A stretch of DNA of 64,000 bases from contig JAWBQF010000006.1 of the NCBI GenBank assembly GCA_038845975.1, forward strand, positions 1 to 64,000, written 5' to 3'. The translations under genes were made by a program, and so were the position numbers. Positions 951 through 25,065 of this stretch are shown here, in pieces. This stretch comes from Candidatus Methanomethylicia archaeon (GTDB taxonomy: Archaea; Thermoproteota; Methanomethylicia; CALHIW01). The stretch's first letter is position 1; each line of letters starts with the position of its first letter. The notes beneath the pieces are model-generated. The model was not told the DNA's origin and made no database searches. It saw only the letters and a list, made by a program, of their open reading frames with translations.

Positions 951-1210
951 ATAAAAGTTAAGCCTTAAAGTACTAAATTTCTATTTGAGATTCATCATTA
1001 ACATTTAGAAATACAACTTTTCCCTTAATGTGTGTTGTCAGTATTGATAATCTACCAGCTTTTAAAGCTCATCAATCAAATTCTTTACAGCCGTATTTCT
1101 CCCGCTGAAAACAAAACGTCTACCTTTAACATATGATTTACTCATACCAATCTAAGTATTTAAACCTATAAATGTAAAACTTTTTAAGTGTTAATCTATG
1201 AATATGTAGA

Positions 1211-2035
1211 GTGATGTTTATGGTTGATATTTATAGTAAAGAGTTTATGGAGTTTCTCTTCAGCAAGTATATTTCAGGTTTGAGGAGGGTATTTCCATAT
1301 CCTGTTGAGGCTAAGCTTAAGATGTGGAAGGCTGTTGATGAGGGGAAGCTTCCAGAAATGACGTGGCGTTCAGCATGGTATAGAGCAATATGGCTATACA
1401 TAGCCTTAACAGCACCTGTAGAAGGACTAGAATGGATACATGAATTTCTTAAAGAGAAGGCTGAGAGGATACGTTTTGAAACCATGATACCGATAATTTT
1501 TAGACATAATATTGAAGGGTATTTATCAGCCGCTAGAGATGTAGCTAGCATGAGACTGAAGAGTGGGAAATACAGGGAAGAATGCGGGAAATTCGTTAAG
1601 GAAATCGAAGGGGAAGTATGCGGTTTAATAATGGATATCTATAGTAGAGAGTTTATAGAGGCTGTTTTCGATAAGTATATTTCCGATTTAAGAAAGCTTC
1701 TTCCACATCCCGTTGAGGCTAAACTTAGTATGTGGAGGGTTGAGGAGAAGCTTCCAGAACCAACATGGAAGTCGGAATGGTATAAGAGAATATGGGTATA
1801 CATAGCTTTAACAGCACCTATGGAAAGGCTTGAATGGATATATGAATTCCTTAAGAGTAAAGCTTGGAGAATGTGTCTTGAGAAAACAATACCTGTAACT
1901 CTTAGATACCATCTTGAAGGATATCTAGCAGCTGCAAGGGATGTAGCTAGCATGAGGCTGGAGAGCGAGGTCTACAGGAGGGAGTGTGAGAAATTCGTTA
2001 AGGATATTGAAGAGGAGGTGCTTGGTAAACAGTAA
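1211..2035 (+). CDS. Hypothetical CRISPR-adjacent protein made of two tandem ~135-aa homologous helical domains
   Basis: 274-aa ORF; halves ~65% identical by eye (YIALTAP, EGYLxAARDVASMRL); TATA-like TTTTTAAG ~25 nt upstream. Confidence 0.85.
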   Translation: MMFMVDIYSKEFMEFLFSKYISGLRRVFPYPVEAKLKMWKAVDEGKLPEMTWRSAWYRAIWLYIALTAPVEGLEWIHEFLKEKAERIRFETMIPIIFRHNIEGYLSAARDVASMRLKSGKYREECGKFVKEIEGEVCGLIMDIYSREFIEAVFDKYISDLRKLLPHPVEAKLSMWRVEEKLPEPTWKSEWYKRIWVYIALTAPMERLEWIYEFLKSKAWRMCLEKTIPVTLRYHLEGYLAAARDVASMRLESEVYRRECEKFVKDIEEEVLGKQ

Positions 2036-2941: not shown

Positions 2942-4300
2942 TTAAAGTCTTCTGCATGTTTTAATTACTTTTCTTAGATTGTCTTCTGCATAGCGGAATC
3001 TTAAGTGGGGTTTAATTTCTTTTTTGATTGTTTCATCATCCATGGAGTTAAGTCTGTTTTGAAATTCAGAATCGCTATCAATTCTTATCTCAACAGTATT
3101 TCTTTCAAATCCTGAGTGGAATATAAAATTTCTATTGTCAAATCCTCCTCCTTCAATTACTTCATTTAATCTAATCCACTTATTGAAAATTCCTTCATCC
3201 TCCTTAATTTTCTTACTGATTCTACTTGGTATTTCATGGCATAGGTCATGGCTTATAGCTATTTCAAGTCTTTTAAATTTTGAAAATAATCTTTCACATA
3301 ATTCGTTTAATTCATTAAATGATACTTCATGCTTCCTCGATAAATTTAGTAGTGATGCAATAAACCATATAATTGTACATGTAGTGAAGTCCTCCGTAAA
3401 CTTAACTTTTCTCTCTATAACGTATTCATTACCTACATGCTTTATACATACTTCATTCAGCCAGGTATTAAATGCTTCATCAATTTTCTCTTTAAGAGCC
3501 TTTAAATCAGGATACCATCTATATAAGGCTAGAGGAAATCCATTTAAAACAGAGTTTAGAAATACATTTAATTCCTCTACTTCATGATCATTCAAGCTAA
3601 ACCTCTTAATAACCTCAATAATACCATCATTTTGCTCAAATTGGCTTAGTAGTCTATGTACTCCACCAATCTTCATAGGCTGAAAAGCAAGCAAGGGAGA
3701 TACTACTCTATCCTCAACTAGATGTATCTCCATTTTATCAGTAACATTCCTCACGTATGGATCTGAATTGAAAACCTTTAACTCAACTGAGGTTGTTAAT
3801 GCTAAAGCATTCAGCATCTCCCTAATACATCTATACGTTAAAGTAGGCATGAAATTTATGCCGTGGGTAAGATCTAAATATACAGTTAACTCCTCATTAC
3901 ATAGGAAATATTTAAGTAATGCATATAGTGTATAAGCATAGAAATCACTTAAACTACCGGAGAATCTAAAATAGTAATCGTCAAATTTAAATCTTCCAAC
4001 ACCGGGTGCAACAATAAAACTAACATTACAGGCTAAATCACTTCTAGCCTCATCCATTAGGGACTTTAGAAATTCTCTATATCTATACTCTACATTTCTC
4101 AACAAATCATTGTATGAGTTAAACCTTTTATTTGCAACTGTATCTAAAACTACTATTAAAGTTAAATCTGGACTTAAAGAGTTAAGTAGGAGTGGAAGAG
4201 AGGATCTACTCTTAATGGAGTTATTGCCATAAACATATTCAACAGAACTCCATCCAGGAATCCAGGGATTACCCCAAGTTGCAACGAGAATGGACTTCAT
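2942..4300 (-). CDS. csx1: CARF-HEPN ribonuclease Csx1
   Basis: ATWGNP N-terminus, DLTHGINFMP (DxTHG) motif, HEPN RNFIFHSGFE. Confidence 0.93.
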   Translation of the reverse strand: MKSILVATWGNPWIPGWSSVEYVYGNNSIKSRSSLPLLLNSLSPDLTLIVVLDTVANKRFNSYNDLLRNVEYRYREFLKSLMDEARSDLACNVSFIVAPGVGRFKFDDYYFRFSGSLSDFYAYTLYALLKYFLCNEELTVYLDLTHGINFMPTLTYRCIREMLNALALTTSVELKVFNSDPYVRNVTDKMEIHLVEDRVVSPLLAFQPMKIGGVHRLLSQFEQNDGIIEVIKRFSLNDHEVEELNVFLNSVLNGFPLALYRWYPDLKALKEKIDEAFNTWLNEVCIKHVGNEYVIERKVKFTEDFTTCTIIWFIASLLNLSRKHEVSFNELNELCERLFSKFKRLEIAISHDLCHEIPSRISKKIKEDEGIFNKWIRLNEVIEGGGFDNRNFIFHSGFERNTVEIRIDSDSEFQNRLNSMDDETIKKEIKPHLRFRYAEDNLRKVIKTCRRL

Positions 4301-4537: not shown

Positions 4538-5209
4538 TTACTTTTCATGCTTAACCTTTCTAACAATACTTTTCAAATCTATAATCCACTTTATTTTTTT
4601 ATCTTCAGTTACATACATTAAAGGTATTAGGTATAATGATGCAATATCGTAGAAGGCTATTGTAGCAGGCTTTGTAGCGCCTGTACAATCCATTATTAAC
4701 GGATAGTTCTCAATAATATCCTCAACTATTGATTTAACCCTACTTCTTAAAGCATTAACATCAGATATTTCATCTCCACTACAAAGTATGAAGTTACAGT
4801 TCACTACATCTATATTCTCCCATTCACCTAAAGCCTTAGATGTTGTTATTACGTAAGACCTATCATACTCAATACCCTCCATTTTAAGAAGCTTTAATGC
4901 TGTTAATGTTTCAGGCTCCTCCCTATTGTTTCTCCTACCAAGTAATCCTAGATATGTATATGGCTTCTTAAGGTTTAAAATAGTGTAAAACACACCTTTA
5001 TATTTCAGTTTATAGAATCCCCTAAGATCCGAATTTACAATTCCTAGTTTACCTAGTCTATTTAAGTGGTGTTTTAAGGCTCCACCCTTAACCCCGCTAG
5101 TTCTCTCAATATTTGAAAAGTTGGTTAAGCCATTAAATCTTAGTAAGGCATCAATAATCTTAATGCTCTTCTCAAACTTTAAAGCCTCCTTAACTTTATG
5201 CTCAAACAT
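4538..5209 (-). CDS. N-terminal wHTH + C-terminal CARF-like domain protein (putative cOA-responsive regulator)
   Basis: ArsR-like HTH (FSNIERTSGVKGGALKHHLNRL), CARF-like LGLLG strand and DCTGATK motif; divergent from the cas operon. Confidence 0.75.
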   Translation of the reverse strand: MFEHKVKEALKFEKSIKIIDALLRFNGLTNFSNIERTSGVKGGALKHHLNRLGKLGIVNSDLRGFYKLKYKGVFYTILNLKKPYTYLGLLGRRNNREEPETLTALKLLKMEGIEYDRSYVITTSKALGEWENIDVVNCNFILCSGDEISDVNALRSRVKSIVEDIIENYPLIMDCTGATKPATIAFYDIASLYLIPLMYVTEDKKIKWIIDLKSIVRKVKHEK

Positions 5210-5251: not shown

Positions 5252-5295
5252 CCAAGAAAATTTTTTAGATAGTAATAAAAATATTATTGGTATTT

Positions 5296-5670
5296 ATGTC
5301 TAGTATTGATGAATTTATGGGAGAGGATATTTTTAACTTAGCTATCAATACCGGTAGTAAAATGACGCCTCGTGTTGATAAGACAACTCTCAGCAATCTT
5401 ATATCACTATTTCTAGGTAGGCTTGATGCTAAAGCCGCATTGAATGAGTTAATAGTTTATATTGCTAGACAAACCGGTAGGAGGGAGATTCCGAGGGATA
5501 TTGCTAAACTCCTTCTTTCAGACATTAGACAGATAAGGAGTAAATGTAGAAATGAAGAGGAGCTTAGAGAGGCTATATCTAAGTATCTAGTATTACTGAG
5601 ATGGGTATATGATAGTGATGTTAGGAATGTTGATAATATTGATAGATTCATGAGTAAGCTTACTGAGTGA
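5296..5670 (+). CDS. Type III small subunit (Cas11/Csm2-like)
   Basis: ~124-aa helical protein, first gene of the RAMP operon; YIARQ..R and YL..LRWVYDS patterns of crenarchaeal small subunits. Confidence 0.7.
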   Translation: MSSIDEFMGEDIFNLAINTGSKMTPRVDKTTLSNLISLFLGRLDAKAALNELIVYIARQTGRREIPRDIAKLLLSDIRQIRSKCRNEEELREAISKYLVLLRWVYDSDVRNVDNIDRFMSKLTE

Positions 5671-6392
5671 TATTGATGATATATTTTAACAGTCAACATA
5701 TAACGTATAGGATTAATGCTGAGCTCATAAATGAGACTCCACTATCTATAGGTGCAGGTAGAGGAGCATTGTTTGGAGGTATTGATAACCCTATAATAAG
5801 AATGAATGGTATACCATTCATTCCTGGATCGTCTATTAAGGGAGTGCTTAGAGCTGAAGCTGAAAAATACGCTAATGTTAAGGGATGGCCTGTATGTGAT
5901 GTTGTATCCAATCCAAACTATGAGATGGATATGAAGGAGAATCTGAAGGATAAATATGAGCCATGTATTGTATGTAGTGTTTTCGGGGGACCAACCGTAG
6001 CCTCCAAAATCACAGTCCTAAATGCCACACCAATAGGTGAATATAGAATTGAGACGAGAACATGCGTATCAATATGTAGGATTACTGGTGGTCAGTATCC
6101 AGGTAGACTATTCGATATTGAGTACATAACTCCACATAGTAGGTTTGAATGGGGATTAATTATTGAGGGCTACGATATAGTTAATGGAGTTGGAAGAGAA
6201 GTTGAACTTATAAATTACTTGATTAAGAAACTTATTAACGATGGGGTTTGGATTGGTGGAAGGAGAAGTGTAGGTCATGGATTGGTTAAGATGAATATCA
6301 GGAAGATTTCACGTGAATCAATAGTTAATGGGGAATTGAAATCTGAAGACTGTACAGATAAGTATCTTAAGTTACTAGGTGTAAAGCATTGA
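5667..6392 (+). CDS. csm3: Cas7-group RAMP (Csm3-like)
   Basis: TPLSIGAG..IDNP, IPGSSIKGVLR, C-x-x-C-x-x-FG, G-rich loop IGGRRSVGHG. Confidence 0.9.
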   Translation: MILMIYFNSQHITYRINAELINETPLSIGAGRGALFGGIDNPIIRMNGIPFIPGSSIKGVLRAEAEKYANVKGWPVCDVVSNPNYEMDMKENLKDKYEPCIVCSVFGGPTVASKITVLNATPIGEYRIETRTCVSICRITGGQYPGRLFDIEYITPHSRFEWGLIIEGYDIVNGVGREVELINYLIKKLINDGVWIGGRRSVGHGLVKMNIRKISRESIVNGELKSEDCTDKYLKLLGVKH

Positions 6393-7243
6393 CTCAATGG
6401 TTTGTTCACGACTACTTATATAGAGTACTGAATGTTAAGTTAAGCTTTGAGGCTAAGTCGCCGTTTAGGATTGGAGCTGGAAAATCAACATCCCTAACAT
6501 CACCTGTAGATCTTCAAGTATTAAGAATAAATATTAATGGAAGAGAGGTACAGTACATACCTGGAAGCAGCTTAAAAGGAGTATTTAGATCTGTGTCTGA
6601 ATTCATCGCTAAGTCGAATGGTATAAATGCATGTATGGCAGGTAATGAATGTAAAGATAACTATAATAGAAAACTGGACGATGCTCTTAGAAGTAGGAAT
6701 CTAGATGAGGTTAGGAAGATATTAGCTAGCTACTGCCTAATATGTAAGCTGTATGGTTCAGGTAGCTATGCTTCACATATAATCTTCGGAGATATGTTTC
6801 CAGAGGGGGATATAGCTATAGGCGTTAAGACAGGAATAGCAATAGATAGGAGAAGTGGAACTGCTAAGCGTGGTGCTTTATATACTGTTGAATTCATAAT
6901 GCCTGGAAGCATATTTAAAGGAAACATTACACTTATAAACACTCCTAACTATGCTATTGGATTATTATCCTACGTTATTAAATTAATTAACGATGGAGTT
7001 ATTAGAATTGGAGGGTTTAAGTCAAGAGGATTTGGTCAATTCTCAGTTAATCCAATGGAAATCAATGGAGAAATTATCCATAACAATAAAGTAATGAAAA
7101 TATCTGAGGTTGACATCTTCGAGCCGCTTGACGAGTTCGATAGTGAGGTTAATATTGCTGATGTAGGGAGGAACTATGCTAAGCTTCTTGAAAGGTTTAG
7201 GATAGCATGGGATAACTATGTCTCAAAGATTAAGCATAGCTAG
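6389..7243 (+). CDS. Cas7-group RAMP (Csm3/Csx7-like)
   Basis: PFRIGAG..VD, IPGSSLKGVFRS, CLICKLYG, IGGFKSRGFG. Confidence 0.9.
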   Translation: MTQWFVHDYLYRVLNVKLSFEAKSPFRIGAGKSTSLTSPVDLQVLRININGREVQYIPGSSLKGVFRSVSEFIAKSNGINACMAGNECKDNYNRKLDDALRSRNLDEVRKILASYCLICKLYGSGSYASHIIFGDMFPEGDIAIGVKTGIAIDRRSGTAKRGALYTVEFIMPGSIFKGNITLINTPNYAIGLLSYVIKLINDGVIRIGGFKSRGFGQFSVNPMEINGEIIHNNKVMKISEVDIFEPLDEFDSEVNIADVGRNYAKLLERFRIAWDNYVSKIKHS

Positions 7244-8147
7244 AAAACCATATACTCCAAGGGATAGAGTAGATAGGGATAGATTCAACATAATATTAGA
7301 TGTTGAAGCTGAAGTAATATCAAATAGCTACCTATTTACAGGGGCATCCGTACATAAGGTTGAAGTATACGATGTAGTTGGCAGAATGGAAAATGTTATT
7401 CAGAGATATTTACGTGGAGAAATAAGCGAGGATGAGATTATAAATATAATCTATAATCAGTATAGAGGAGTTGAAATAAGACCATCGAGGAGAATGCCTA
7501 GATACCTGGATAAAATCATAATTCCAGGATCATCCATTAAGGGCGCTATCAGATCTAGAATTGAGTATAAATGCTCCCCATCAATATCGTGCTACTCAGT
7601 TGAAAGTAGGGAGTTGCCGCCAAAACAATTCTATAGGAGACATATAGGATATTGGGGTGAAAATGTAGTTGATGCTAGAGGGGCATGTAGTCCAGATAAT
7701 GTATGTATTGTATGCGATTTATTCGGAGCTCCAGGACTACTCTCAAGAGTATACTTTACAGATATGGTTATGAGTAGTGGAGGAGTAAGCTTCCTAAAGG
7801 ATTTGGGAGTGGAAGCAGTAAATCCGAACTCAAAATTTAATCTTGAAGTTAACGGTGTAAACTTTAACTTTACAGATCTCGGCCTCATGCTTGCAGGTCT
7901 TGAAATATTTACTGGAAGCCGTGTTCCAATATGTGCATACAAGTATAGGTATAATCCTAATCTGGGAGGTGGACACTACATGGATAAATACGTGTTTGGA
8001 CTTGTAAAATTCTCCATTAACGGGTTTAGGGAAAACATTTCTAGGAAGCTATCAGATCTAAAACTTGAAGACTTAATATCTAGATCTAGAGAGGAATTAA
8101 CCAATACTCTTGGAGACAATATAGATATACGTAAAGGTGTTATTTAA
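7218..8147 (+). CDS. Cas7-group RAMP with insertion
   Basis: IPGSSIKGAIRSR, CIVCDLFG. Confidence 0.85.
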   Translation: MSQRLSIARKPYTPRDRVDRDRFNIILDVEAEVISNSYLFTGASVHKVEVYDVVGRMENVIQRYLRGEISEDEIINIIYNQYRGVEIRPSRRMPRYLDKIIIPGSSIKGAIRSRIEYKCSPSISCYSVESRELPPKQFYRRHIGYWGENVVDARGACSPDNVCIVCDLFGAPGLLSRVYFTDMVMSSGGVSFLKDLGVEAVNPNSKFNLEVNGVNFNFTDLGLMLAGLEIFTGSRVPICAYKYRYNPNLGGGHYMDKYVFGLVKFSINGFRENISRKLSDLKLEDLISRSREELTNTLGDNIDIRKGVI

Positions 8148-8422
8148 TGGCCGTCTCAGAGGAGGAGCTTCTTAAAATTGTTGGTAGGTATAGTAAGGTA
8201 TTTATCGTTAAGGATGACATGACCTATGACTTGAAGAATGGAAGCGAAATACGTAGCTCCAGCGATCTTGGGGTTCTCGGATTTGCCCTTACTAATGGTA
8301 AGGGAATTAAATGGTTGAGAATTGGTGAGAAAAAATATGTTGAATACCAGATCGATCTAAGTAGGAGCTACATCCATCCATCTTTAGGTAGAAAGGGAAT
8401 TAGGATAGAGGAGGTGATTTAG
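8147..8422 (+). CDS. Small (91 aa) protein in the type III operon (possible Csx19-like subunit)
   Basis: Overlaps stop/start codons on both sides (translational coupling); no recognisable motif. Confidence 0.65.
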   Translation: MAVSEEELLKIVGRYSKVFIVKDDMTYDLKNGSEIRSSSDLGVLGFALTNGKGIKWLRIGEKKYVEYQIDLSRSYIHPSLGRKGIRIEEVI

Positions 8423-11040
8423 TGGATAGAATTGTTAGGGGATACATACTTCCGAAAGCTGGAAATATACATGTTGAGGAGATATCATATATTGAAGGAG
8501 AGGAAATGCTTAGAAAATATGAAGAGGTTCTTAGTAACATTATATCAAGCTTTCTGAATACGAGAAAAATAGATAAGATAAGAAGTGGGGAAGAGCTTTA
8601 CGATCTATTAAACGAGATCGTCGTAACGATTAGATGGACACTATATCTTGACCCAATACCTAAAGTTATACCTTCCCCTGCATTCCTCATAATTTATCTA
8701 ATTAGAAACAAAAACCTAAAGCTGTTCAGTAAAGACACTATTAGCGGCCTACATGAGACACCGGTAATAGAGGATGCATTGAAAAGATCGGTCGAATACG
8801 AGAGACTTAGGGAATACGTAATGGATATTCTACGATATCCCGCAGATACCCGATATGGAGCCAACACATCATCGCTCCTAATACATATGATTACGACATC
8901 AGCTATAGCTTCATGTCTTCTTTTAAGCAGATTTAAAGATGTGAAGGACATTCAAAATATGCTTATAATCTTAAGATTGATATCGCTATTTCATGATGTC
9001 GGCAAATTCAATATGAGGGAATGGCATAGACATGAGGATAAATCAATGGAATTCATGGATAAAGTATTTAGTGAATATGTTGATGGGGATGCTAAAAAGC
9101 TTATAGATGATGCTAAGAAAATTATGAGGGAGAATACAGGCACTATTATGGATATATTTAGGGAGGCTGATAGAATTTCAAGCAATATAGATAGGCTTGT
9201 AAGATATATTCCGGACATGTTATCGGAGAAGGTGAAAGCGGAGCTTATAGAATGTGCAGGTAAATATGGTAGATCGGTAGAGGATGCATATAGGGACTGG
9301 AAGTTTTGGGATTTCGTAGGATATGAAATGATTAAAAAGCTTACAGAGGATTTCTGTAGGAATGCATCAAGAATAGATAGTAGAAATCCGATAATAAGAG
9401 CGGAGGTTGAGTTGAAGGAGGACTGGAAAGAATTAAAGGAGATATTAGTGACGAGATTTGATGTTAGAGGCATTCAAAACTACATTAGGGTTAACGATTT
9501 ACGGTCAATATGTGGTGCAAGTAGAATAGTTGACTTTACATGTTTAGTATCAATACCATGCTTTATAATCAACAATCTTAAACTCCCAGCTGAATGTATA
9601 CTATACTTTGGAGGAGGGAGCATTACAGTAGTAACGCCGCCAGATAAGGTTAGTGAATTCAGTAAGCTATGTAGTGAAGCTAAGCGTGAGCTAGGGCTTA
9701 ACATTATATATGGCTCATCTTACTTCCACTCATCGTTCTCAATAGTAAACTACAATATAGATTGCGAATTGATGAGAAGGAAGATACTTGAGGATGAGGA
9801 ATTGAATGTGGAGCCAAACATATCCTATATATGTGATTTCTGCGGATCCAGTAGAGTAGAGGTATTGGATGGAAATAGGGAGAAGGTAGGGGACAGCCTA
9901 GTATGTAGGGCATGTAGGGTTAAGTATGATGTTGGTGATAGCATATATCTTAACTGGAGGATCAGGAGGGTAAAGAGTTTATTAAGCTTAAATGTTGATT
10001 TAGATAAGCTTAAGAAATACGTGATGGAGTATATAGCTGGGGTAAAGTATGAATCCATAGAGAGGGAATATATCGAGAGGTATCCGAACATAGCGTTGAT
10101 AAGATTTGATGCCAATCTAGCATCCTTAATTATGATGTCATGTACATCCATAAGTGATGCCGTTGAGAGAAGTATTAGGATTGATTATAGCGTTAAGAAG
10201 GCTCTCCACGATGTTATCGATTATGTTAGGAACAAATATGCAGAGGAATATTTTAGGCTCATATTAGGTATAATATATGTTGGAGGGGATGATGGCTTTA
10301 TGCTTTGCCCATCATATATTGCACTACCATTAACAATACATCTAGCTAGGGAATTCAATATTCAGATGGGCGGTAAGGCAACACTATCAATAGGTATTGC
10401 TGTAGCTAAACCTAAACATCCAATTCTTGAATTATATAGATCTGCAGGCTACCTACTAGATAAATATGCTAAGGGAAGCGCTAGAGGGGAATCCGTTAAG
10501 ATAGCTGGAGGCTCTGATCATAAGTTTTATGGCTCGCTTGCATTCTATGTCGCTGATGGTGGGGTAATGACTGAACACGTATTAGACCATGTAATCGATC
10601 TTGTAGGTAGTAAGAGGCTGAGCTTGATGTATGATGAGATGGGAAAGATAGGATCCTATATGATTTCAAGTATTCAAGAGGATAACTCGATATTTAGATT
10701 GTTAAGCATAGTTTTCGGTGATATAGATATAGAAACGTTCAACTATAGGGGCTTAATGGATATGATTATAAACTCAATAAATGAAAAGCAAAGAAGCGGT
10801 GAAAGCGATCTACATAATAGACTTACAGACATAAGAAATGATGCTCTGGATATAGTTAAGAAAACCCTATTTACAGATGATAGTGTTAAGGTTAAGATAA
10901 TATATGCTAAGAGACAGAGCAAAAGATTAGGACATCGCTATATAGATATTCTTAAGTATTTATTTAGCTTGAAGGAAATGAGGTTTCCACTTCATGATCT
11001 TCTTCAAATAGTTAAGATTGTAGGTGGGGGAATTGAATAG
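8422..11040 (+). CDS. cas10: Cas10 with HD nuclease and palm (cyclase) domains
   Basis: H..LFHDVGK..ADRISS HD domain, CDFC/CRAC Zn finger, YVGGDD palm motif. Confidence 0.95.
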   Translation: MDRIVRGYILPKAGNIHVEEISYIEGEEMLRKYEEVLSNIISSFLNTRKIDKIRSGEELYDLLNEIVVTIRWTLYLDPIPKVIPSPAFLIIYLIRNKNLKLFSKDTISGLHETPVIEDALKRSVEYERLREYVMDILRYPADTRYGANTSSLLIHMITTSAIASCLLLSRFKDVKDIQNMLIILRLISLFHDVGKFNMREWHRHEDKSMEFMDKVFSEYVDGDAKKLIDDAKKIMRENTGTIMDIFREADRISSNIDRLVRYIPDMLSEKVKAELIECAGKYGRSVEDAYRDWKFWDFVGYEMIKKLTEDFCRNASRIDSRNPIIRAEVELKEDWKELKEILVTRFDVRGIQNYIRVNDLRSICGASRIVDFTCLVSIPCFIINNLKLPAECILYFGGGSITVVTPPDKVSEFSKLCSEAKRELGLNIIYGSSYFHSSFSIVNYNIDCELMRRKILEDEELNVEPNISYICDFCGSSRVEVLDGNREKVGDSLVCRACRVKYDVGDSIYLNWRIRRVKSLLSLNVDLDKLKKYVMEYIAGVKYESIEREYIERYPNIALIRFDANLASLIMMSCTSISDAVERSIRIDYSVKKALHDVIDYVRNKYAEEYFRLILGIIYVGGDDGFMLCPSYIALPLTIHLAREFNIQMGGKATLSIGIAVAKPKHPILELYRSAGYLLDKYAKGSARGESVKIAGGSDHKFYGSLAFYVADGGVMTEHVLDHVIDLVGSKRLSLMYDEMGKIGSYMISSIQEDNSIFRLLSIVFGDIDIETFNYRGLMDMIINSINEKQRSGESDLHNRLTDIRNDALDIVKKTLFTDDSVKVKIIYAKRQSKRLGHRYIDILKYLFSLKEMRFPLHDLLQIVKIVGGGIE

Positions 11041-11659
11041 CCAGATTAAGATAGAGCTTGAACTGATAGCTGAGAGGAAGCTTAATATCGGAGCTGGAGG
11101 AGTAGCGCCCAAGATAAAAGCAGATATGCCTATGATGTCCATTAAGGCATTTAACAATGAGGACTACGTATTCATTCCCGGATCAACCATTAAAGGATTG
11201 CTTAGAACGAGCTTAATAAGGATTTCAAGTCTACTCGGATATGAAAACATAACGTATACTGTAAATCCGGAGGATAAAATGGGTGACGATATTGTTGTAA
11301 GGCTTTTCGGTAAGCCAAATCAAAACGTTCAAAGTAAGGTTTCGGTGGAAAGCGTAATGATTAAGGAATCAACGGAAACATTAACACATGTTAGGATAGA
11401 TGATAAGTCAAGAACGGCTATAGAGGGTGGACTATTCTCGATCGAATATTTACCGATAGGAAGTATTATTAGAGCAGTAATTGAGGCTAGGGAGCTGAAT
11501 ATCGAGGAGGCTAGAGCGCTTATGGCAGCTATATTGAATCTAAGATATGAGAGGATAGGTAAATCAGGAATTGTTAACGTTAGGATTAGGGATGCATCTG
11601 GAATTGAAAGCTATCTATCAGACCCCATCATTAAGGAGATATATGAGTCCTTAAGGTGA
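11024..11659 (+). CDS. Cas7-group RAMP
   Basis: LNIGAGG..AD, IPGSTIKGLLR, LFG, THVRIDD. Confidence 0.88.
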   Translation: MGELNSQIKIELELIAERKLNIGAGGVAPKIKADMPMMSIKAFNNEDYVFIPGSTIKGLLRTSLIRISSLLGYENITYTVNPEDKMGDDIVVRLFGKPNQNVQSKVSVESVMIKESTETLTHVRIDDKSRTAIEGGLFSIEYLPIGSIIRAVIEARELNIEEARALMAAILNLRYERIGKSGIVNVRIRDASGIESYLSDPIIKEIYESLR

Positions 11660-11663
11660 TAAC

Positions 11664-12677
11664 GTGAGGATATATAGCTTGGAGTTAACCGTTAATACGC
11701 CATTAATAATTACTGGAGCCAAGTACGGTAGGGTTATCGAGCATAGCATTAACTATATTCCAGGATCATCTATTAGAGGATCAATACTTACACTTTTAAA
11801 ATTCATGAATTCAAAGCTCGTTGATGAGGAAATATCAACTCCGAAAATGATTTTCCATCCAGCATATCCTATAAGCCAAGATGGAAACCAATCCTATCCA
11901 TCGGATCCATTAACGTTTAAATGTAAGATATGTGGGGAAATAGTTCAACTTCCAGTTAAATCCCCTGAAGACCTGAGGATACCTACTAAATATGGAGAGA
12001 ACCATATATGTATGTTCAAAAACATAGGGGGCTCCCTAATCTATTGTAGGAATGGGAAGTTAAAGAGCTTAAATCTGAAGCATGCATTCATAGAGGCTGT
12101 AGGTATAAATAAGATGTTAAGAAGCTCAGAAACTGGTCTACTATATAGTTATGTTGCTCTTGCTCCAGGAGTAGTGTTTAGAGGGTTGGTTATCGATCCT
12201 ATAGATAGGCTTGAACAAATGATTAAGGATGTAGGTTTAAGCATGAATAGCTTGAAGCTGAAAATCGGTAGGAGGGTATCTGCTGGGCTTGGACGTGTAG
12301 AGGCTAAAATAGCTGAGGATAAAAACTATATTGATAGGAGAATTAAACAGCTATCTAGTACTAACGGTACACTATGTCTGCTAGCTAAGTCACCTGTCTT
12401 CAATTTAGACTATGATGAGAAGGATATCTTCCCAACAGTTAAGAGCATTGGGAGTCTACCAGTAAAATACGTATTCAAAACTGGAATAGTTGAGGTCTCA
12501 GGCTATAGTATTAAGTCGAATACTCCTAAAGTCATGATTAAAGGATTAAATATTGGGTCGCTAATAGTTCCTGATGCTAGGAATATATGTGTGGAGGACT
12601 TGGTGAAGCTGGAGCTTCATGGAGTAGGGCCATTCTCGACTGCAGGATTGAATATTGTTGAGGTGGTTAAGAGGTGA
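11664..12677 (+). CDS. Cas5-group RAMP (Csm4/Csx10-like)
   Basis: YIPGSSIRG, FHPAYP, IGRRVSAGLG and C-terminal GVGPFSTAGLN G-loop. Confidence 0.82.
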   Translation: MRIYSLELTVNTPLIITGAKYGRVIEHSINYIPGSSIRGSILTLLKFMNSKLVDEEISTPKMIFHPAYPISQDGNQSYPSDPLTFKCKICGEIVQLPVKSPEDLRIPTKYGENHICMFKNIGGSLIYCRNGKLKSLNLKHAFIEAVGINKMLRSSETGLLYSYVALAPGVVFRGLVIDPIDRLEQMIKDVGLSMNSLKLKIGRRVSAGLGRVEAKIAEDKNYIDRRIKQLSSTNGTLCLLAKSPVFNLDYDEKDIFPTVKSIGSLPVKYVFKTGIVEVSGYSIKSNTPKVMIKGLNIGSLIVPDARNICVEDLVKLELHGVGPFSTAGLNIVEVVKR

Positions 12678-13600
12678 TTGATTACAGATTAAATTCAAGA
12701 TATATAATCAACATGAGGATAAATCCGATAAGCCCAATACATATAGGGGCAGGTGAAGAGGGATTCGTAAAGGGAATAGTATCCATGAAAATCTCAGGAA
12801 TCACACTACCGATAATTCCGGCTGAAAGCATAAAGGGAATACTAAGAAGTATGGCTACTAGAATAGCTAACAGTATAAGATTTAATAAGGTTATGTATGA
12901 CTTCAATATAGATGAAATTGTTAAAAGTCATGATAAAGATGTTCATACAGGCTACCTAGAGAAAACACTTAAGGAAAGTAGTGGGGAGGAGTTAAGGAGG
13001 AGAATTTGGAAAACCCTAAGTAGTATAGGGTTAAGCGATAAACAGATAAGTAAATTCATAGATGAAGTTGGAAGTAGGGAAGCATTAGAGCTCTCATTAT
13101 CTCTTCTATGCCCTATCTGTCTACTCTTCGGCTCAAGACATTATGCAGGTAAAATACTGATTACAGATGCCATACCAGTAGATCAAAATGGGGAAATTGC
13201 AAAGCCGGAAATAGAGACAAGAACATGCGTCAGCATATCGAGGAGATATAGAGTAGCAGAGCCGGAGAAACTATATACGATACAATACATAACCCCGAGG
13301 AACATATCGTTTAAATCTAAGATGATAATCGATAACGTTATGAAGGGAGATACGGAGGCCAAACTATTAGCATACCTACTAAAACATATAAGTGAAAATG
13401 AAGTTGTAATAGGTGGGTTGAAAAGTAGAGGTTTTGGATTCGTTAAGATAGATTCTGAAATAATGAAAATGAAGCTTACAAAACCGAAAAACATAAGTGA
13501 TCTAGGTACAATAATGAGTAACATTAAGGCATTACTAATGAGAGAGGATGCTGTGGAGAAGTTAACAATAAGCCAGATGATAATAGACTTAACTAATTAA
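12674..13600 (+). CDS. Cas7-group RAMP
   Basis: PIHIGAG, IPAESIKGILRS, CPICLLFG, IGGLKSRGFG. Confidence 0.9.
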   Translation: MIDYRLNSRYIINMRINPISPIHIGAGEEGFVKGIVSMKISGITLPIIPAESIKGILRSMATRIANSIRFNKVMYDFNIDEIVKSHDKDVHTGYLEKTLKESSGEELRRRIWKTLSSIGLSDKQISKFIDEVGSREALELSLSLLCPICLLFGSRHYAGKILITDAIPVDQNGEIAKPEIETRTCVSISRRYRVAEPEKLYTIQYITPRNISFKSKMIIDNVMKGDTEAKLLAYLLKHISENEVVIGGLKSRGFGFVKIDSEIMKMKLTKPKNISDLGTIMSNIKALLMREDAVEKLTISQMIIDLTN

Positions 13601-13606
13601 TCTTTT

Positions 13607-14857
13607 ATGAGCTTTCAGTTAACATTATTTGAACTTGGATTAATAACAAGATTACTAGTGGAAACGCCATTAAGAATCCTAGGCGACCTAGTTAAAGCCA
13701 CATATTACAAGACAAGCGATTTTGAAGGTTATGTTAAAAAATCACTAGAAAATGTATTGAAATCAATTCAAGTTGTAACACAAACAGTAAATATAGAGGA
13801 AGAAATGATACAGAATACAAAAGAGAGAATGAACAGAAGGGAAGAAACAATACAAAACATAGAAGGAGAGAAGGAAAAGATTGCTGATATGATAATTAAT
13901 GATTGTTTTAAGATTATTAGAGATGATGTTCTTAATGAATTACCAATTGACTTAATAATACTACCTATAAGGTTTAGTGATTGTCTATTCTTAATTATTG
14001 ATAGATACCTTAAATTACTTACTGGTACTCATGATACTGAATTGATAAAAGTATTGGATAATGTTATTTTCAACATTTCTAGCTACCTAATGAGCCAAAT
14101 TTACCTAATTATAGATAGGCATGAAAATGGATTTAGTGAAGTAGCTCATTATATAGCTGATAACATTAATAATATTAAATATCTATATAATATTAAACCT
14201 AAGCTCCTATTTGACCTACTTGACTTATCTAAACAAAAAGGAAATATTAGAAAGTGTATGGATATGAATGGGAATGAATACTATGTATTTGATGTAAAAA
14301 GCTTTGGTGATGATGCTAGACCGATTATAGATGTTCTTAACAATAAGCATCCAATAAAATATTATACTGATGTTTTTGAATGCGACTTCCATAAAGAGCT
14401 ATATTTAAGTGAGAGGAAATGTAGTAGAGGCGACCTCTTAAAGCATAGGGAGAATGTTTTTCTAATACCCTACTCTCTACTTGAAGTAGATATTGGGAGA
14501 ATATTGGAGGCTCTTGTTTATTTAAGGCTAAGAAGCAATATTAGAGCTAATAAATTACTGATTACACATAACGTTTTACTTAATAATATAGAGTATGACA
14601 TATTAAGCTTTCAACTTACCTATACTGGATCGTATAGAGATGTATTGGATATTGAGATAGATGCTATTAATGTATTTGAATGTAAGAAAACAGTTGAAGA
14701 GAAAGATATGCGTGAATTCGATCAAGATATGAAGATGCTAGAGAAACACGTGTATGGCGTAAAAATCAACCCGTATATTATTTGCATTGAGAGTGAAGTT
14801 GCTGAAAAGGATAACATTATATTACTTGAAGATTGGGAGAAGCTTGATAGGCTTTAG
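13607..14857 (+). CDS. Hypothetical protein with N-terminal coiled/helical region and C-terminal PD-(D/E)xK nuclease-like domain
   Basis: ILEALVY...EYDIL...VFECK pattern; starts 6 nt after the last RAMP gene. Confidence 0.65.
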   Translation: MSFQLTLFELGLITRLLVETPLRILGDLVKATYYKTSDFEGYVKKSLENVLKSIQVVTQTVNIEEEMIQNTKERMNRREETIQNIEGEKEKIADMIINDCFKIIRDDVLNELPIDLIILPIRFSDCLFLIIDRYLKLLTGTHDTELIKVLDNVIFNISSYLMSQIYLIIDRHENGFSEVAHYIADNINNIKYLYNIKPKLLFDLLDLSKQKGNIRKCMDMNGNEYYVFDVKSFGDDARPIIDVLNNKHPIKYYTDVFECDFHKELYLSERKCSRGDLLKHRENVFLIPYSLLEVDIGRILEALVYLRLRSNIRANKLLITHNVLLNNIEYDILSFQLTYTGSYRDVLDIEIDAINVFECKKTVEEKDMREFDQDMKMLEKHVYGVKINPYIICIESEVAEKDNIILLEDWEKLDRL

Positions 14858-15689: not shown

Positions 15690-17705
15690 ATGTTGGTTAT
15701 GCGTCGTATTACACGTGGATTAAGGCTTTGCCCTAAATGTGAATCCGTAATGATGCCATGTGTAGGTGGGATTTACTGTGTAAGATGTGGTTACAGTGAG
15801 AGAGTGAATGTAGCTTCTAGAGGATTTGTAGGGAGAAATTTAGATTTAGATGAGGTTGAGAGGTTAATTGTTAATGAAAGGAGGGAGACGGTTAGAGATT
15901 TGAGATCTCTAAGGGCTAGGGTTGTTGATGTTTCCCATGGTATTGCTGTTTTGGAGGTTAGGTCTATAGGTGTTTTTCAGCCAGGTGATCCTGTAGGTAT
16001 TATTGCTCATGGACTTCGTTTTCTCGGTACGGTATTGGATGCTAGTATAGGTCAACTAACAATAATTTTAGCGGGAAATCCAAATATAGGTGAGGGTAGA
16101 ATTGTTAGAGTGTTTAATTATGAGCCTTTAATTAGTTATGATCTTCAATTATCGTTAATCAATTACTTAAAATCCTTACCCTCTGAAATACCTATATCCA
16201 TAAGTAATCAAGAGGCTTTCAACATAGTTCTTAATATGGTGGATTTTCCTGATCTTAAGTATTCTAAGCTTCATGATTGTAGGGATGTTAGGGATGGTTT
16301 TAGGCTTGATAGCTCTCAGGTAAAAGCTGTTGAGGCTGCATTAGCGTTGGAAGATAATGAGTTGCTGCTAATTATTGGTCCTCCGGGAACTGGTAAGACT
16401 AGGGTTATTGCTAAGATAGCCTATGAATTAGCCAGTAAGGGTGAGAAAATTCTAATCTCATCGCATACTAATAGAGCTGTTGATAATGCTATTGAGCTAC
16501 TACCTATAGAGATTACGCTAAGAGTCGGTAGACCGGAGAAAATACTTGAAAACGTTAAACCCTACTTGTTAAGCTATAGGGCTAGAGAGAAGCTTGGAGA
16601 AAAGCTGAGAAGTATTGAAAACGAAATTAGAAATAGTCTAGAATTAATTAGGAAGTATATGATGGGTTTGGGAGGCGAAGCATATAAGGAGAATATTAGG
16701 GAATGTAAGCATAGATTAAAGATTCTCATTGAAGATAGGAATAATATGGTTAGGATGCAGGCTGAAAAACTAGTTTATGAAGCGAAAATTATTGGCTCAA
16801 CTCTAGTTAAGTCTCAGCTTCCACCGCTTCATAATATAGATTTTGATACTGTTATTATTGATGAGGCAAGCCAAGCATCAGTAATGCTTGCTCTACTAGG
16901 GATGATTAAGGGTAGGAAGTGGATAGTTGTTGGAGACCATAAACAGCTACTACCAATATTTAAATCCGCTAGAAACTATGAGTTAAATGAGAGGTTAAGT
17001 GTATTTGTTAATTTATTGAGAAAGTATGAGGGGAGGAGTTTATGGCTTCAATGGCATTATAGAAGCAATAGAGATATTATAGGTTTTCCTGCAGAATATG
17101 TTTACAATGGTAGGATAAAGCCAGTAGATAAATGTATAGGGAAGATATTGAAGGGGCTTAGTAGAAGACCTAGTATAGATGTTTTAAACCCTGAAAAACC
17201 AGTAGTCTTCATACATGTTGATGGCAGTGAGGAAGTTGAGGGTAGATCAAGATTTAACGTTAAGGAGATTGAAGCTACAGTAAGTATTACTCATGAATTA
17301 ATCGATTGTGGAATTAATTCTGGAAGTATTGGTATAATATCACCCTATAGAGCTCAGAAAGCTAGAATCGCTGAAAAGCTAGGGAGTGAAAAGGAGATTG
17401 TTAGGAAACTGGAAAGCATGGGAGAATCGATTGAGATAGATACTGTGGATTCATTTCAGGGAAGAGAGAAAGATGTAGTAATATTTACAGTTACGGCGAC
17501 AAATATTGATGGGTTAAGATTTGTATCGAATGAAAATAGGCTTAACGTAGCGTTTACAAGACCAAAATATAAGCTTATAGTTATAGGTAATGGAAGATCA
17601 ATATATAGATATGCAGGGGAAACATTACTCTACAGGTTTCTAGAATACACTTATAAGCTGAAAGCTATATGGAGTTACGAAGATGGGAAATGGATGAGTA
17701 AATAA
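15690..17705 (+). CDS. SF1 helicase, Upf1/Dna2-like, with N-terminal Zn ribbon
   Basis: CPKC/CVRC, GPPGTGKT, DEASQ, GDHKQL, TVDSFQGREK, RLNVAFTR. Confidence 0.93.
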   Translation: MLVMRRITRGLRLCPKCESVMMPCVGGIYCVRCGYSERVNVASRGFVGRNLDLDEVERLIVNERRETVRDLRSLRARVVDVSHGIAVLEVRSIGVFQPGDPVGIIAHGLRFLGTVLDASIGQLTIILAGNPNIGEGRIVRVFNYEPLISYDLQLSLINYLKSLPSEIPISISNQEAFNIVLNMVDFPDLKYSKLHDCRDVRDGFRLDSSQVKAVEAALALEDNELLLIIGPPGTGKTRVIAKIAYELASKGEKILISSHTNRAVDNAIELLPIEITLRVGRPEKILENVKPYLLSYRAREKLGEKLRSIENEIRNSLELIRKYMMGLGGEAYKENIRECKHRLKILIEDRNNMVRMQAEKLVYEAKIIGSTLVKSQLPPLHNIDFDTVIIDEASQASVMLALLGMIKGRKWIVVGDHKQLLPIFKSARNYELNERLSVFVNLLRKYEGRSLWLQWHYRSNRDIIGFPAEYVYNGRIKPVDKCIGKILKGLSRRPSIDVLNPEKPVVFIHVDGSEEVEGRSRFNVKEIEATVSITHELIDCGINSGSIGIISPYRAQKARIAEKLGSEKEIVRKLESMGESIEIDTVDSFQGREKDVVIFTVTATNIDGLRFVSNENRLNVAFTRPKYKLIVIGNGRSIYRYAGETLLYRFLEYTYKLKAIWSYEDGKWMSK

Positions 17706-18696: not shown

Positions 18697-18957
18697 AAGA
18701 AATAAGAATTTTATTTTTTATAAAGCTTACTTTACCTTACTTAATACTTTCAGTAAACCCCTACAACTAGCAATATTATTTTGCTGGAGATATTGCATTA
18801 ATAGTACTTAGTGAATACTGGTGTTAATAGCTGCTTGATTTTATCAAGTACTGCTTGCAGTTCTTGGTCATCGCATAGCCATAGATACTTCACTTGACTT
18901 CAACTGTCTTAGCCCCACCAGCTACGCTGAATTCCGCATATTTACTCCAGTAATATG

Positions 18958-19049
18958 GAATCTTAAATAGGGAGATATTGAAAGAGTAATGTTACCAATG
19001 CTTGTACTAGTAAGTAACAATACGGAATCTCAAATAAGAGAGTTGAGAG
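18958..19049 (+). CRISPR. Degenerate mini CRISPR array: two diverged repeats and one 40-nt spacer
   Basis: GAATCTTAAATAGGGAGATATTGAAAG (18958-18984) and GAATCTCAAATAAGAGAGTTGAGAG (19025-19049); spacing matches the main array. Confidence 0.8.
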
Positions 19050-19252: not shown

Positions 19253-19381
19253 ATGGTGGATATTTATAGTAGGGATTTTATAGAGTTTCTCTTCAGCAAG
19301 TATATTTCAGGTTTGAGGAGGGTATTTCCATATCCTGTTGAGGCTAAGCTTGAAATGTGGAAGATGTTTAAATGTATGTGA
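19253..19381 (+). pseudogene. Truncated copy of the 1211-2035 gene
   Basis: MVDIYSRDFIEFLFSKYISGLRRVFPYPVEAKLEMWK; 69 bp (19283-19351) identical to 1250-1318. Confidence 0.9.
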
Positions 19382-19385
19382 AGTT

Positions 19386-19524
19386 ATGGCTGAGGAAATT
19401 GATTACAGGGAGTTTATGAATAGTGTTTAGAGGGTATTGTTGATTAAACATGTATTATGAATTAAAGGCGTATGGGGTAGATTTTTACCTGGGAACTAAG
19501 GCTATGAGTGCAGGTACTGTTTAA
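19386..19524 (+). pseudogene. CARF-domain gene relic
   Basis: VDFYLGTKAMSAG resembles the CARF D-x-T-x-G-T-K-x-M-S motif; in-frame stops. Confidence 0.5.
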
Positions 19525-19618: not shown

Positions 19619-20902
19619 TCATTCCATAGATAATAACCATTTCCATAGCGGGGTAAATCTTATTTTTCCCTCATTTACTCTGATTTCATCTTCATAATCC
19701 CATGTTATTATAAGTAGGTTTTTACATTTTAATTGCTCGCTAGCTTTAATTAGAGCTTTAATTTCTCTTTTCTCTACCTCATCTCTACTGGAAGCGTAAG
19801 TTACTTGAATTAACTGTTTAATCTTTAATCCTTCTTTTACTACAAAATCTACTTCTCTCTGCTGATAATCTTTCCAGTAGTAAATTTCTAATAGAGGATT
19901 TTCGTTTTGTCTTCTCTTCAATTCCAGGAATGTAGTGTTCTCCATTAATCTCCCTTTTTCCTCCCTAGCTAGGAGGGAAGCTAAACCACTATCACATAAG
20001 TAAACCTTCTTTAAAGATAGGAATTCTCTTCTTAGGGATGGTTCAAATTTAGATAGGTAGAAGCAGAAGAATGCATCCTCGAAAAGTTGTGAGTATGAGT
20101 AGAGAGTTTTCCTACTTACCTTTACCCCTTTTTCCTTAAGAATCTCGTAATTTCTGTTAATGGAGAATTCTTTACTGAAGGATGAAAGTATAGATGTCAT
20201 CAAATACCTTATTACAAAGATATTTCTTACTCCAAATCTTTCCACTATATCTCTAAAAGCAACTAAATCCATATATTCTTTAAAGAACTTTTTAGGGTCA
20301 ACCTCGTTTAAAACTATATCTGGGAATCCTCCTTTCAATAGGTGTAGAGATAATAAGTTTTTAAGCTTACTCTCCTCTGAAGTTGTTAAAAACTTATCTA
20401 TTTTTAAACCCCTTAATCTAACAACTTCACTAAATGAAAGGGGAAGAATTAAGAAGGAAATACATCTTCCTCTTAGCTGAGTAGCAATCTCCTTTGATAA
20501 AAGCTTTGAGGAAGAGCCTGTAATAAAGATATTGTATTTCTTTTTCTCAAACAATGTATAAACTATTTTTTCCCAATTGTTGAATGCTTGAACTTCATCG
20601 AAAAATAAGAAGTTAGGCTCATTCCCGTAAATTTCTTGATGATAAAAAACTGAATTAAGAATTTCCTCCCTACTTAAACTTGTTATTCCCTCATCCTCGA
20701 AATTTATAAATAGGAAATCCCTATCTTGTAGCCCCTTCTTATTTTTTATCAAGTCATATATGGAATATGTTTTTCCAGCTCTCCTCGGACCTATAACGGA
20801 AACTATAAAGTTCCTGTTTATTTGGAAGTTTACTGCCCTCTCTTTTACGGTTAACAATCCTATATCGCTTTTTTTATCAATCAAGTATCTTTTTAAATCC
20901 AT
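19619..20902 (-). CDS. AAA+ ATPase (AAA_14 + DUF4143-type C-terminus)
   Basis: GPRRAGKT, DEVQ, TGSSS, GGFP, KKVYLCDSG, EN..F.EL, EVDFV..QV. Confidence 0.92.
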   Translation of the reverse strand: MDLKRYLIDKKSDIGLLTVKERAVNFQINRNFIVSVIGPRRAGKTYSIYDLIKNKKGLQDRDFLFINFEDEGITSLSREEILNSVFYHQEIYGNEPNFLFFDEVQAFNNWEKIVYTLFEKKKYNIFITGSSSKLLSKEIATQLRGRCISFLILPLSFSEVVRLRGLKIDKFLTTSEESKLKNLLSLHLLKGGFPDIVLNEVDPKKFFKEYMDLVAFRDIVERFGVRNIFVIRYLMTSILSSFSKEFSINRNYEILKEKGVKVSRKTLYSYSQLFEDAFFCFYLSKFEPSLRREFLSLKKVYLCDSGLASLLAREEKGRLMENTTFLELKRRQNENPLLEIYYWKDYQQREVDFVVKEGLKIKQLIQVTYASSRDEVEKREIKALIKASEQLKCKNLLIITWDYEDEIRVNEGKIRFTPLWKWLLSME

Positions 20903-23462: not shown

Positions 23463-23620
23463 TTTGCATTTAGGGGGTTTAGCTAAACCTATGCATGAGA
23501 ATCAGGCTTTGCTGTTATAGACAAAGAATTCTATACAGGCTCAGAGTAGTGTTGACTCTTATACTGCTAATCTCAAGTAAAGAAAATTGAAGATTATTGA
23601 GTCCAGACGTATATCCTTAT

Positions 23621-24654: not shown

Positions 24655-25065
24655 TTAAGATATACTTAAAGCAATTCTCCATAGCTGAAACATCATCAAC
24701 ATTATACCGACAAGTATCGGTACATTAAAAGCTATAAACAGCTTAATAAATAATGAAAGTTGCCCCTCAAGCCTAGCAACTCTCTGCTCAAGACCTGAAA
24801 CCCTCCCTTCAATTCTCTCCATATTCATCCTTGTTGTCTCTCTTAATGCTTCTATGTCTTCCTTTGTTGCTTTTCTTAATGCTTCTATGTCTTCCTTTGT
24901 TGCTATTTCTCTTGATATTGCTATTAGTATTGCTTTACGTAGATCTCTACGTTTAAAAACTTCAGGTATAAGCTCATCTGAAAGTGCTTTACGTAAATCT
25001 TCATCCCTTCTCAATTCCTCAAGAAGCTGTCTACCAACAGACATATAAAACATATTACCATACAA
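24655..25065 (-). CDS. Coiled-coil protein with 11-aa ATKEDIEALRx repeats and C-terminal TM (DUF1640/Bdr-like)
   Basis: 33-bp tandem repeat around 24841-24905; hydrophobic C-terminus; likely start at MSVG (25044). Confidence 0.8.
   Translation of the reverse strand: MYGNMFYMSVGRQLLEELRRDEDLRKALSDELIPEVFKRRDLRKAILIAISREIATKEDIEALRKATKEDIEALRETTRMNMERIEGRVSGLEQRVARLEGQLSLFIKLFIAFNVPILVGIMLMMFQLWRIALSIS

Follow-up and report, generated by a model that had tools for sequence, protein, structure and literature searches.

What kind of gene lies between the end of a CRISPR (short palindromic repeats, clustered and regularly interspaced) array and a CARF-domain gene at positions 1211 to 2035 of a 64,000-nucleotide (nt) stretch of Candidatus Methanomethylicia archaeon DNA (contig JAWBQF010000006.1 of assembly GCA_038845975.1; this whole stretch is called the window below)? 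The gene encodes two similar domains in tandem, and a first-pass annotation, believing that it saw the same arrangement twice, had put it forward as a candidate new cas accessory family. We find that its homologues are few, that their association with CRISPR is confined to a single orthologous locus, and that an intact copy lies on DNA matched by spacers of the host's own arrays. On balance, we think it probable that this is a captured mobile-element gene, from a family of dimer-forming, helical and non-enzymatic proteins, and not a conserved Cas component.

The gene occupies an unbroken plus-strand open reading frame (ORF) from 1211 to 2035. Position 1211 is a GTG in frame upstream of an ATG at 1220, and the ATG is the likelier start, giving 271 amino acids (aa), because homologues begin at M-VDIYS. 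Its layout is as follows.

1220–2035, + strand: tandem-domain orphan gene, 271 aa from the ATG at 1220 (identified by ORF, homology and selection)
1220–1627, + strand: domain 1, modelled with six helices (AlphaFold2, 15-row alignment)
1631–2032, + strand: domain 2, 64% identical to domain 1

The halves encoded by 1220–1627 and 1631–2032 are identical at 86 of 134 residues (E 2e-62), in good agreement with the two halves of about 135 aa and about 65% identity that the first-pass annotation had described, and Tandem Repeats Finder reported 2.0 copies of a 402-nt period at the DNA level. The two motifs that it had quoted, WY..IW.YIALTAP and EGYL.AARDVASMRL, are both present and conserved. Each half also contains a long antisense ORF; these were rejected as noteworthy, as shuffles of synonymous codons equalled the observed length in 459–751 of 2000 cases.

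To place the gene in a family, we drew on protein, genome and metagenome collections. A metagenome scan recovered ten loci (L006 to L015) that fall, with the window, into two clades: a tandem clade comprising the window, L006, L007 and L008, and a single-domain clade comprising L009–L015, with proteins of 139 aa that are ~40% identical. A word-index search returned one protein of nearly the same length, P0001 (271 aa, 93% identical), among 1859 candidates; HMMER found two clusters among 1.84 billion representative proteins, and a search with a profile gave seven proteins with E ≤ 0.01. One partial protein, labelled by NCBI as coming from an uncultured archaeal metagenome-assembled genome, is in sequence the N-terminus of the L008 copy. 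The gene was not detected in the other genome of the same taxonomic family, in 61 other genomes of the class or in 400 other sampled genomes of the phylum. None of 68 pattern matches in a scan of genome contigs was confirmed, nor was any match in a scan of viral contigs with the family, and tblastn of the protein against a phage collection found no match. Pfam, NCBIfam, PADLOC and PHROGs gave sub-threshold noise only (GvpG, E 0.011; HORMA, E 0.0098; LmuB, E 0.0011), a search of PDB sequences with a 9-row profile gave no match at E ≤ 10, and two ESM Atlas queries gave nothing usable. Across four hot-spring metagenome runs, the 5′ end of the gene appeared in three upstream contexts only: that of locus A, that of the L008 type, and that of a truncated copy at 19253 of the window. 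The family is very small and restricted to particular lineages.

We then asked how the gene has evolved among these copies. In the sense frame, the ratio of nonsynonymous to synonymous divergence (dN/dS) was 0.28–0.36 between the two halves, 0.16–0.33 between the window gene and that of L008, and 0.08–0.18 among the single-domain copies. The corresponding ratio pN/pS was 0.21 between the window and the host strain represented by L007. The 271-aa frame is unbroken in the window, L006 and P0001. The tandem ORF is a real gene under purifying selection.

If the gene were a conserved accessory of CRISPR systems, its homologues should be found repeatedly beside them. We observed CRISPR adjacency solely in one orthologous locus, that of the window, L006 and L007, apart from the truncated copy, which follows two degenerate repeats. 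L006 is the same locus, with the gene 100% identical and the neighbours 99.5–99.6% identical; L007 comes from a sister strain that shares with the window three spacers at the trailer end of the array and the 269-nt region from array to gene. No CRISPR repeats were found in L008 or in L009–L015, the latter representing three unrelated contexts (L009 and L015; L010; L011–L014), and tblastn of 13 Cas and accessory proteins of the window (Cas, CARF, Csx1) found no relatives in any of these loci. The 105 ORFs of the single-domain loci matched 74 Pfam families; the 25 commonest included PaREP1, AAA_21, an integrase SAM-like family, HTH_17 and HEPN, and no Cas family was among those 25. The single Cas-labelled PADLOC match in these loci, 'Cas12f', is probably the TnpB-like ORF of L010. 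Within the genome itself, all three family matches lie on contig C6, and a second array (contig C27, 50 repeats, Cas1 ~7 kb away) has no family copy at its end. The first-pass annotation had named a lack of enrichment near CRISPR-cas loci as the observation that would count against its proposal, and, because the homologues are indeed not enriched there, the accessory-family reading is unsupported; as a claim for a new cas accessory family it is weak, the sole recurring association being a single orthologous locus. According to Shah et al. (2018, PMC6546367), roughly one in two of the accessory genes found next to type III modules has no CARF domain and no known function, and the window gene resembles these in being a non-CARF ORF beside a type III cassette. 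That census scores families by repeated association, which the family described here does not display in the loci compared.

Where, then, might the gene have come from? L008 carries an intact tandem copy, 84% identical to the window gene in the best aligned segment, with neighbours that include AAA+/MCM-like ATPases, a transglutaminase-like protein, a nucleotidyltransferase and ORFans. We compared ~89 spacers with all loci (40 from the arrays of the window, L006 and L007, and up to 49 from C27), and found four that match L008 over their full length.

L007 spacer 5: 42/42 nt, L008 9591–9632, in the 152-aa gene
C27 spacer 24: 46/46 nt, L008 1381–1426, in no called gene
C27 spacer 27: 40/40 nt, L008 2530–2569, in the nucleotidyltransferase gene
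C27 spacer 30: 37/37 nt, L008 11146–11182, in an AAA+ gene

All four protospacers have a 5′-TCN flank, with TC at −3 and −2 (TCC, TCT, TCT and TCG). TCN is a protospacer-adjacent motif (PAM) used with certain repeat families of crenarchaea. Of the four CRISPR RNAs (crRNAs), two would be complementary to mRNA predicted for L008. Because these are four full-length, PAM-flanked protospacers, L008 can be regarded as DNA that the host lineage treats as foreign, and the same protospacers together with the gene content are our grounds for the label 'mobile element'. L008 thus appears to be a mobile or integrated element targeted by host CRISPR arrays. Apart from the spacers, this genome (93% complete) otherwise contains, of L008, the family gene and the truncated copy only. 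Among other proteins encoded on L008, the AAA+ protein gave weak ATPase matches only (24–31% identity), a word-index search with the 184-aa neighbour returned that protein alone, and PDB sequence searches with both neighbour proteins gave nothing meaningful.

Several minor features of these arrays and of L008 can be recorded here. Relative to the window gene, the L008 gene has a ~38-nt insertion at its 3′ end (L008:8893–8930), flanked by a direct repeat of GGTAAACA, which alters the last residues of the protein. The C27 array (C27:11–3276, 50 repeats) has two repeat variants, ending in ...GAAAG (28 copies) and ...GAAAA (22 copies), with Cas1 at C27:10189–10971, and the clustering of spacers 24, 27 and 30, all matching L008, may reflect primed adaptation. 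Spacer 10 of L006 (L006:660–695) matches, at 36 of 36 nt, contig C65 of this genome bin (C65:1543–1578; 7.5 kb), a contig that may represent a self-target or a further mobile element sorted into the same bin.

The truncated copy in the window bears on both questions, as it was the second instance of the supposed CRISPR-linked arrangement. The features at this site are the following.

18956–19049, + strand: two degenerate CRISPR repeats (18956–18984 and 19022–19049) with one spacer between them
19253–19381, + strand: truncated third copy, with 38 homologous codons, four unrelated codons and a stop
19371–19443, + strand: remnant of the start of the L008 184-aa gene (blastn against L008 8950–9023, 86% over 74 nt)

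A truncated copy and upstream repeats are thus present as described, the repeats being two and degenerate, but the gene that follows encodes an AAA_14/DUF4143 ATPase (19619–20902, minus strand) and not a CARF protein; nor did a scan of nine ORFs in the interval from 21.4 to 33.9 kb give a match to any CARF family. Because the ATPase gene, not a CARF gene, follows the stub, the order of array end, gene and CARF gene occurs once in the window, not twice as had been proposed. Positions 19253–19366 are 94% identical in DNA to 1217–1330, and the frame of the stub is open over 46 codons. The spacer between the degenerate repeats matched nothing in the loci or the genome. We read the stub as the remnant, left by deletion, of the element's family gene and the gene next to it, because 19371–19443 matches the start of the 184-aa gene of L008.

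We also considered whether this copy had arisen by segmental duplication of the array end together with the gene. This was rejected: the first and third copies are homologous in their coding part only, their upstream DNA can be aligned at the repeat and nowhere else, and the DNA downstream of the third copy matches L008. A lone degenerate CRISPR repeat is found at 23565–23592 (+ strand), 4.5 kb past the two-repeat remnant.

Comparison of the loci in the two clades suggests which context is the older. L008 and the distant L010 are syntenic across a block made up of the family gene and the five genes downstream of it, the latter 53–67% identical:

Family gene: tandem in L008, single-domain in L010, ~39% identity
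Gene 2: 184 aa in L008 and 186 aa in L010, 53% identity
Gene 3, basic: 152 and 162 aa, 58% identity
Gene 4, on the opposite strand: ~100 aa, 61% identity
Gene 5, AAA+ ATPase: 289 and 322 aa, 67% identity
Gene 6: 225+ and 328 aa, 63% identity

To the eye, the C-terminus of the gene 3 product looks like a winged helix, and L010 also has TnpB-like and ParB-like genes. Because L008 and L010 keep this synteny, the element context would be old, whereas the CRISPR-adjacent context is unique to one lineage. Elsewhere, the ORF appears to have travelled by itself. The single-domain contexts are homologous to one another over only ~415–480 nt (92–96%, blastn), up to the stop codon, and homology between the window and L008 is restricted to 1211–2031. 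The copies also seem to have recombined since. When the window is compared with L007, the 269-nt stretch upstream of the gene is 100% identical, yet there are 26 differences in the gene's first 477 nt; residues V13, M48 and D51 of L007 are those of L008; synonymous divergence (dS) between the window and L008 is unequal between the halves (0.56 and 0.22); and the stub, though it matches L008 in its downstream flank, has a coding part that is nearer to that of locus A (94%) than to that of L008 (85%). From this combination of upstream identity, divergence within the gene, L008-like residues, unequal dS and a mosaic stub, we infer recombination between host and element copies, and we read this as a sign that the two still exchange sequence.

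In the single-domain loci, a ~150-nt repeat occurs at L009:18748–18898 and at sites in L011, L013 and L014 (72–85% identical, both orientations); it resembles a miniature inverted-repeat transposable element and is not a tRNA. In L011, L013 and L014, insertions or replacements of 1–5 kb start ~105 nt upstream and ~107 nt downstream of the single-domain ORF in contigs that are otherwise collinear, and the genes within them are partly metabolic (DsrE, Hdr-like) and partly ORFans with a C2H2 zinc finger.

What might such a protein do? AlphaFold2 modelled one domain, from the 15-row alignment, as six helices (residues 7–24, 28–40, 49–64, 67–85, 92–114 and 116–134) with no strands (pLDDT 85.3, pTM 0.79). 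Foldseek found no match to this model at E ≤ 0.001 in either the PDB (best E 1.3) or BFVD, and the best hits of a wide VIA-align search (Z 8.4, root-mean-square deviation 4.3, 91 residues aligned) and of a second look (Z 7.0) lie within the noise expected of helical models. The domain is reminiscent of HEPN and PaREP1-type families, which are likewise small, helical, multi-copy and patchily distributed in hot-spring archaea, and PaREP1 and HEPN account for 5 and 2, respectively, of the 105 ORFs on the contigs of the single-domain homologues. It differs from them in having no Pfam match, in its six helices and in an hhalign probability of 0.1% to the HEPN protein of the window; a check for the Rx4-6H motif found no invariant or near-invariant histidine in the 15 sequences.

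When two copies of one domain were modelled together, they formed a symmetric homodimer with a score of 0.77, against 0.00 for the best control. Contacts agreed by at least 89% among runs, and the partner had a pLDDT of at least 78. In calibration, 20 of 30 solved one-chain pairs reached the mark, as did 1 of 23 single chains, counts that apply only roughly to this case as a custom alignment was used. The predicted interface consists mostly of helix 3 (residues 49–64) with helices 5 and 6 (92–130). WY..IW.YIALTAP lies on helix 3 and EGYL.AARDVASMRL on helix 5, and half of the 14 invariant residues (W53, I57, Y60, L63, T64, E99 and G100) are among the 38 interface residues. The suggestion of a covalent pseudo-dimer, also made in the first-pass annotation, therefore holds as a model, because both motifs sit on interface helices and single-domain relatives exist that would pair in the same way. 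T64, R83, E87 and E99 are the only invariant polar residues; because there are just these four, the protein would more readily act as a binder than as an enzyme.

We favor, as the more probable history, that the ancestral form was a 139-aa, six-helix protein that paired as a symmetric homodimer, and that in the window lineage its ORF was duplicated head to tail, such that one chain would provide both halves. The home of the family would be a mobile genetic element from which host chromosomes have captured the ORF several times. The gene at 1220–2035 would be one such capture, of the ORF alone, which landed in a variable zone between the trailer end of the array and the type III accessory genes; it would since have been kept by purifying selection while still trading sequence with the element copy, and the stub at 19253 would be a decayed fragment of the same element. 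The protein may act by binding, in element-host conflict or in regulation of the element, making an anti-defence or regulatory role possible.

Several observations weigh against this history. The direction of transfer is deduced from synteny in two lineages only, and two of the three single-domain contexts look chromosomal, with a pterin-binding enzyme, uracil-DNA glycosylase, DsrE and Hdr-like proteins as neighbours. L008, a contig of 12 kb, shows neither terminal overlap nor a PHROG match; beyond its AAA+/MCM-like ATPases, it has no recognisable capsid, integrase or replicase gene. No relatives of L008 were found in virus collections, and matches of its AAA+ and 152-aa proteins to viral contigs gave none that was confirmed, such that L008 could instead be foreign chromosomal DNA or an element that has integrated. 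The dimer exists only as a model, AlphaFold2 of the full-length protein from a single sequence was poor (pLDDT 52), and the interface is modestly enriched for conservation, holding 12 of 35 invariant or near-invariant residues against 38 of all 136. Lastly, in three records of metagenomes or genomes the gene does have an array and a CARF gene as neighbours, and the stub follows two degenerate repeats, making a local CRISPR-related role possible.

The last point calls for a closer look at the surroundings of the gene in the window:

1–950, + strand: CRISPR array, 15 repeats of GAATCTCAAATAAAGAGAATTGAAAG spaced 61–68 nt, its start lost at the edge of the contig and window
973–993, − strand: inverted partial repeat copy immediately after the last repeat, present too in L006 and L007
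2036–2065, + strand: 30-nt spacer with a TTTATATTTTTT box ~24 nt ahead of the CARF ATG, read from the sequence
2066–2857, + strand: CARF protein of the Cas_APE2256 family (Pfam E 7e-36; NCBIfam TIGR02619 E 3e-31)
2942–4300, − strand: Csx1, with CARF and HEPN domains (TIGR01897, E 1e-68)
4538–5209, − strand: helix-turn-helix (HTH) protein with a weakly CARF-like C-terminus, Csa3-like (HTH_5 E 6e-4 and CARF_Card1 E 0.04, both under cut-off)
5287–14857, + strand: type III-D-like effector module with several Csx7 RAMP (repeat-associated mysterious protein) genes, Cas10 (8422–11040) and a Csx10-like gene (11664–12677)

The gene-proximal spacers 11, 12 and 14 of the window array are identical to spacers 13–15 of L007 and the distal spacers are not alike, which is why the gene-proximal end appears to be the old, or trailer, end. 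The repeat ends in ATTGAAAG, which we take to be the crRNA 5′ handle, and on that basis transcription of the array would run on the plus strand; the inverted partial repeat and the last repeat could form a hairpin. A box like TTTATATTTTTT is also found 3′ of the L008 copy, there preceding another gene, and may be a promoter. The CARF protein matched the ring-nuclease model NF040951 weakly (81 bits, cut-off 600). Rfam gave no match in the window, and no tRNA genes, as possible integration targets, were found in the loci or the window.

This neighbourhood makes it conceivable, although we consider it improbable, that the protein is a CRISPR-conflict factor common to element and host: the element copy would be an anti-CRISPR, either a sponge for cyclic oligoadenylate (cOA) or an inhibitor of CARF effectors, and the host copy beside CARF and Csx1 genes a domesticated regulator or decoy. 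The precedent is the pairing of viral AcrIII-1 with host Crn2 (DUF1874), ring nucleases that act as dimers and form one family whose members are encoded on mobile elements as well as next to type III accessory genes of hosts. The family described here is likewise found on an element and beside host type III accessory genes, its own dimer being so far modelled; it has no sequence or fold match to AcrIII-1/Crn2, its model is all-helical, and its host adjacency is seen in one lineage. That the host copy abuts the Cas_APE2256 CARF gene and Csx1 and is under purifying selection, that the element copy lies on DNA targeted by this host's arrays, and that a symmetric dimer would suit a two-fold symmetric ligand are all consistent with such a role. 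What speaks against it is that single-domain homologues in two contexts have no CRISPR neighbours, that the second array of the genome has no copy, and that the predicted fold is unlike those of known cOA binders; CARF and SAVED sensors, for example, are Rossmann-like alpha/beta domains, whereas this domain is modelled as six helices with no strands. Were the idea correct, the family would be a previously unseen CRISPR-conflict protein with no detectable fold relative, and the AcrIII-1/Crn2 pattern would have a second example, unrelated in structure, an outcome to which we assign a low likelihood.

Rather less likely is that the protein regulates the element itself, as a dimeric DNA-binding repressor or early regulator heading the element's operon, with solitary host copies conferring superinfection immunity. 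In the block common to L008 and L010 the gene comes first, ahead of that of the basic protein whose C-terminus looked winged-helix-like by eye; solitary copies in hosts are seen at four or more sites, and a dimer is modelled. Set against this, Pfam and NCBIfam gave no HTH or other DNA-binding family match, and the isoelectric points of the proteins are near neutral (5.4–8.5).

We are slightly more doubtful still that the host copy is a functionless hitch-hiker, the neutral debris of recombination with the element. The stub shows that such debris does arise here, and the distribution of the family is patchy, but the intact 271-aa frame in all three of the window, L006 and P0001, the pN/pS between host strains and the dN/dS against L008 point the other way, and we disfavor neutral debris because of this purifying selection.

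Finally, the first-pass annotation's suggestion of a Cas11-like small subunit or scaffold for the neighbouring type III complex is very improbable: the protein does resemble Cas11 proteins (Csm2, Cmr5) in its small size, its helical make-up and the closeness of its gene to type III genes, about 3 kb from the type III-D-like module, but its gene lies outside the effector operon with CARF, Csx1 and HTH genes in between, the module has its own small ORF (5287–5670), to which hhalign gave a probability of 0.8%, Pfam and NCBIfam returned no Cas11-type family and no profile similarity was seen, homologues reside on an element and in non-CRISPR contexts, and the fold-search lists, in which helical folds are poorly discriminated, contained no Cas11 structures.

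On the favored reading, of a gene captured from a mobile element, what the window offers is an orphan family that is confidently modelled, has no sequence or fold relatives and has been caught in both single-domain and fused pseudo-dimer forms. One copy is on an element that host arrays target at four sites, and another neighbours the type III accessory genes of the host. At CRISPR loci, gene pairs of host and element have been a source of anti-CRISPRs and of their host counterparts before, and for that reason the family is a cheap and well-defined candidate for interference assays. The window and L008 also provide a linked pair of host and element, with a TCN PAM, in a poorly studied lineage of hot-spring archaea.

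Some further features of the type III region and its surroundings complete the description. Two ORFs of the module, at 13607–14857 (+ strand, 416 aa) and 5287–5670 (+ strand, 127 aa), have no family match, and the latter, with which the module opens, may encode its small subunit. L006 is 99.5% identical to the window as far as the HTH/CARF gene and then diverges (L006:5100–6629, compared with the window from 5287 onward); beyond that point L006 has a small ORF that is 68% identical over 62 aa, and no other Cas protein of the window was matched there. Because L006 departs from the window past the HTH/CARF gene, the effector module is unlike between these close strains. Directly after the module in the window lies a superfamily 1 helicase gene (IGHMBP2/Upf1-like, with an N-terminal TFS-like zinc ribbon; 15690–17705, + strand). 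Farther along, a 33-nt tandem repeat of 2.1–2.2 copies is found at 24831–24910, within a minus-strand ORF.

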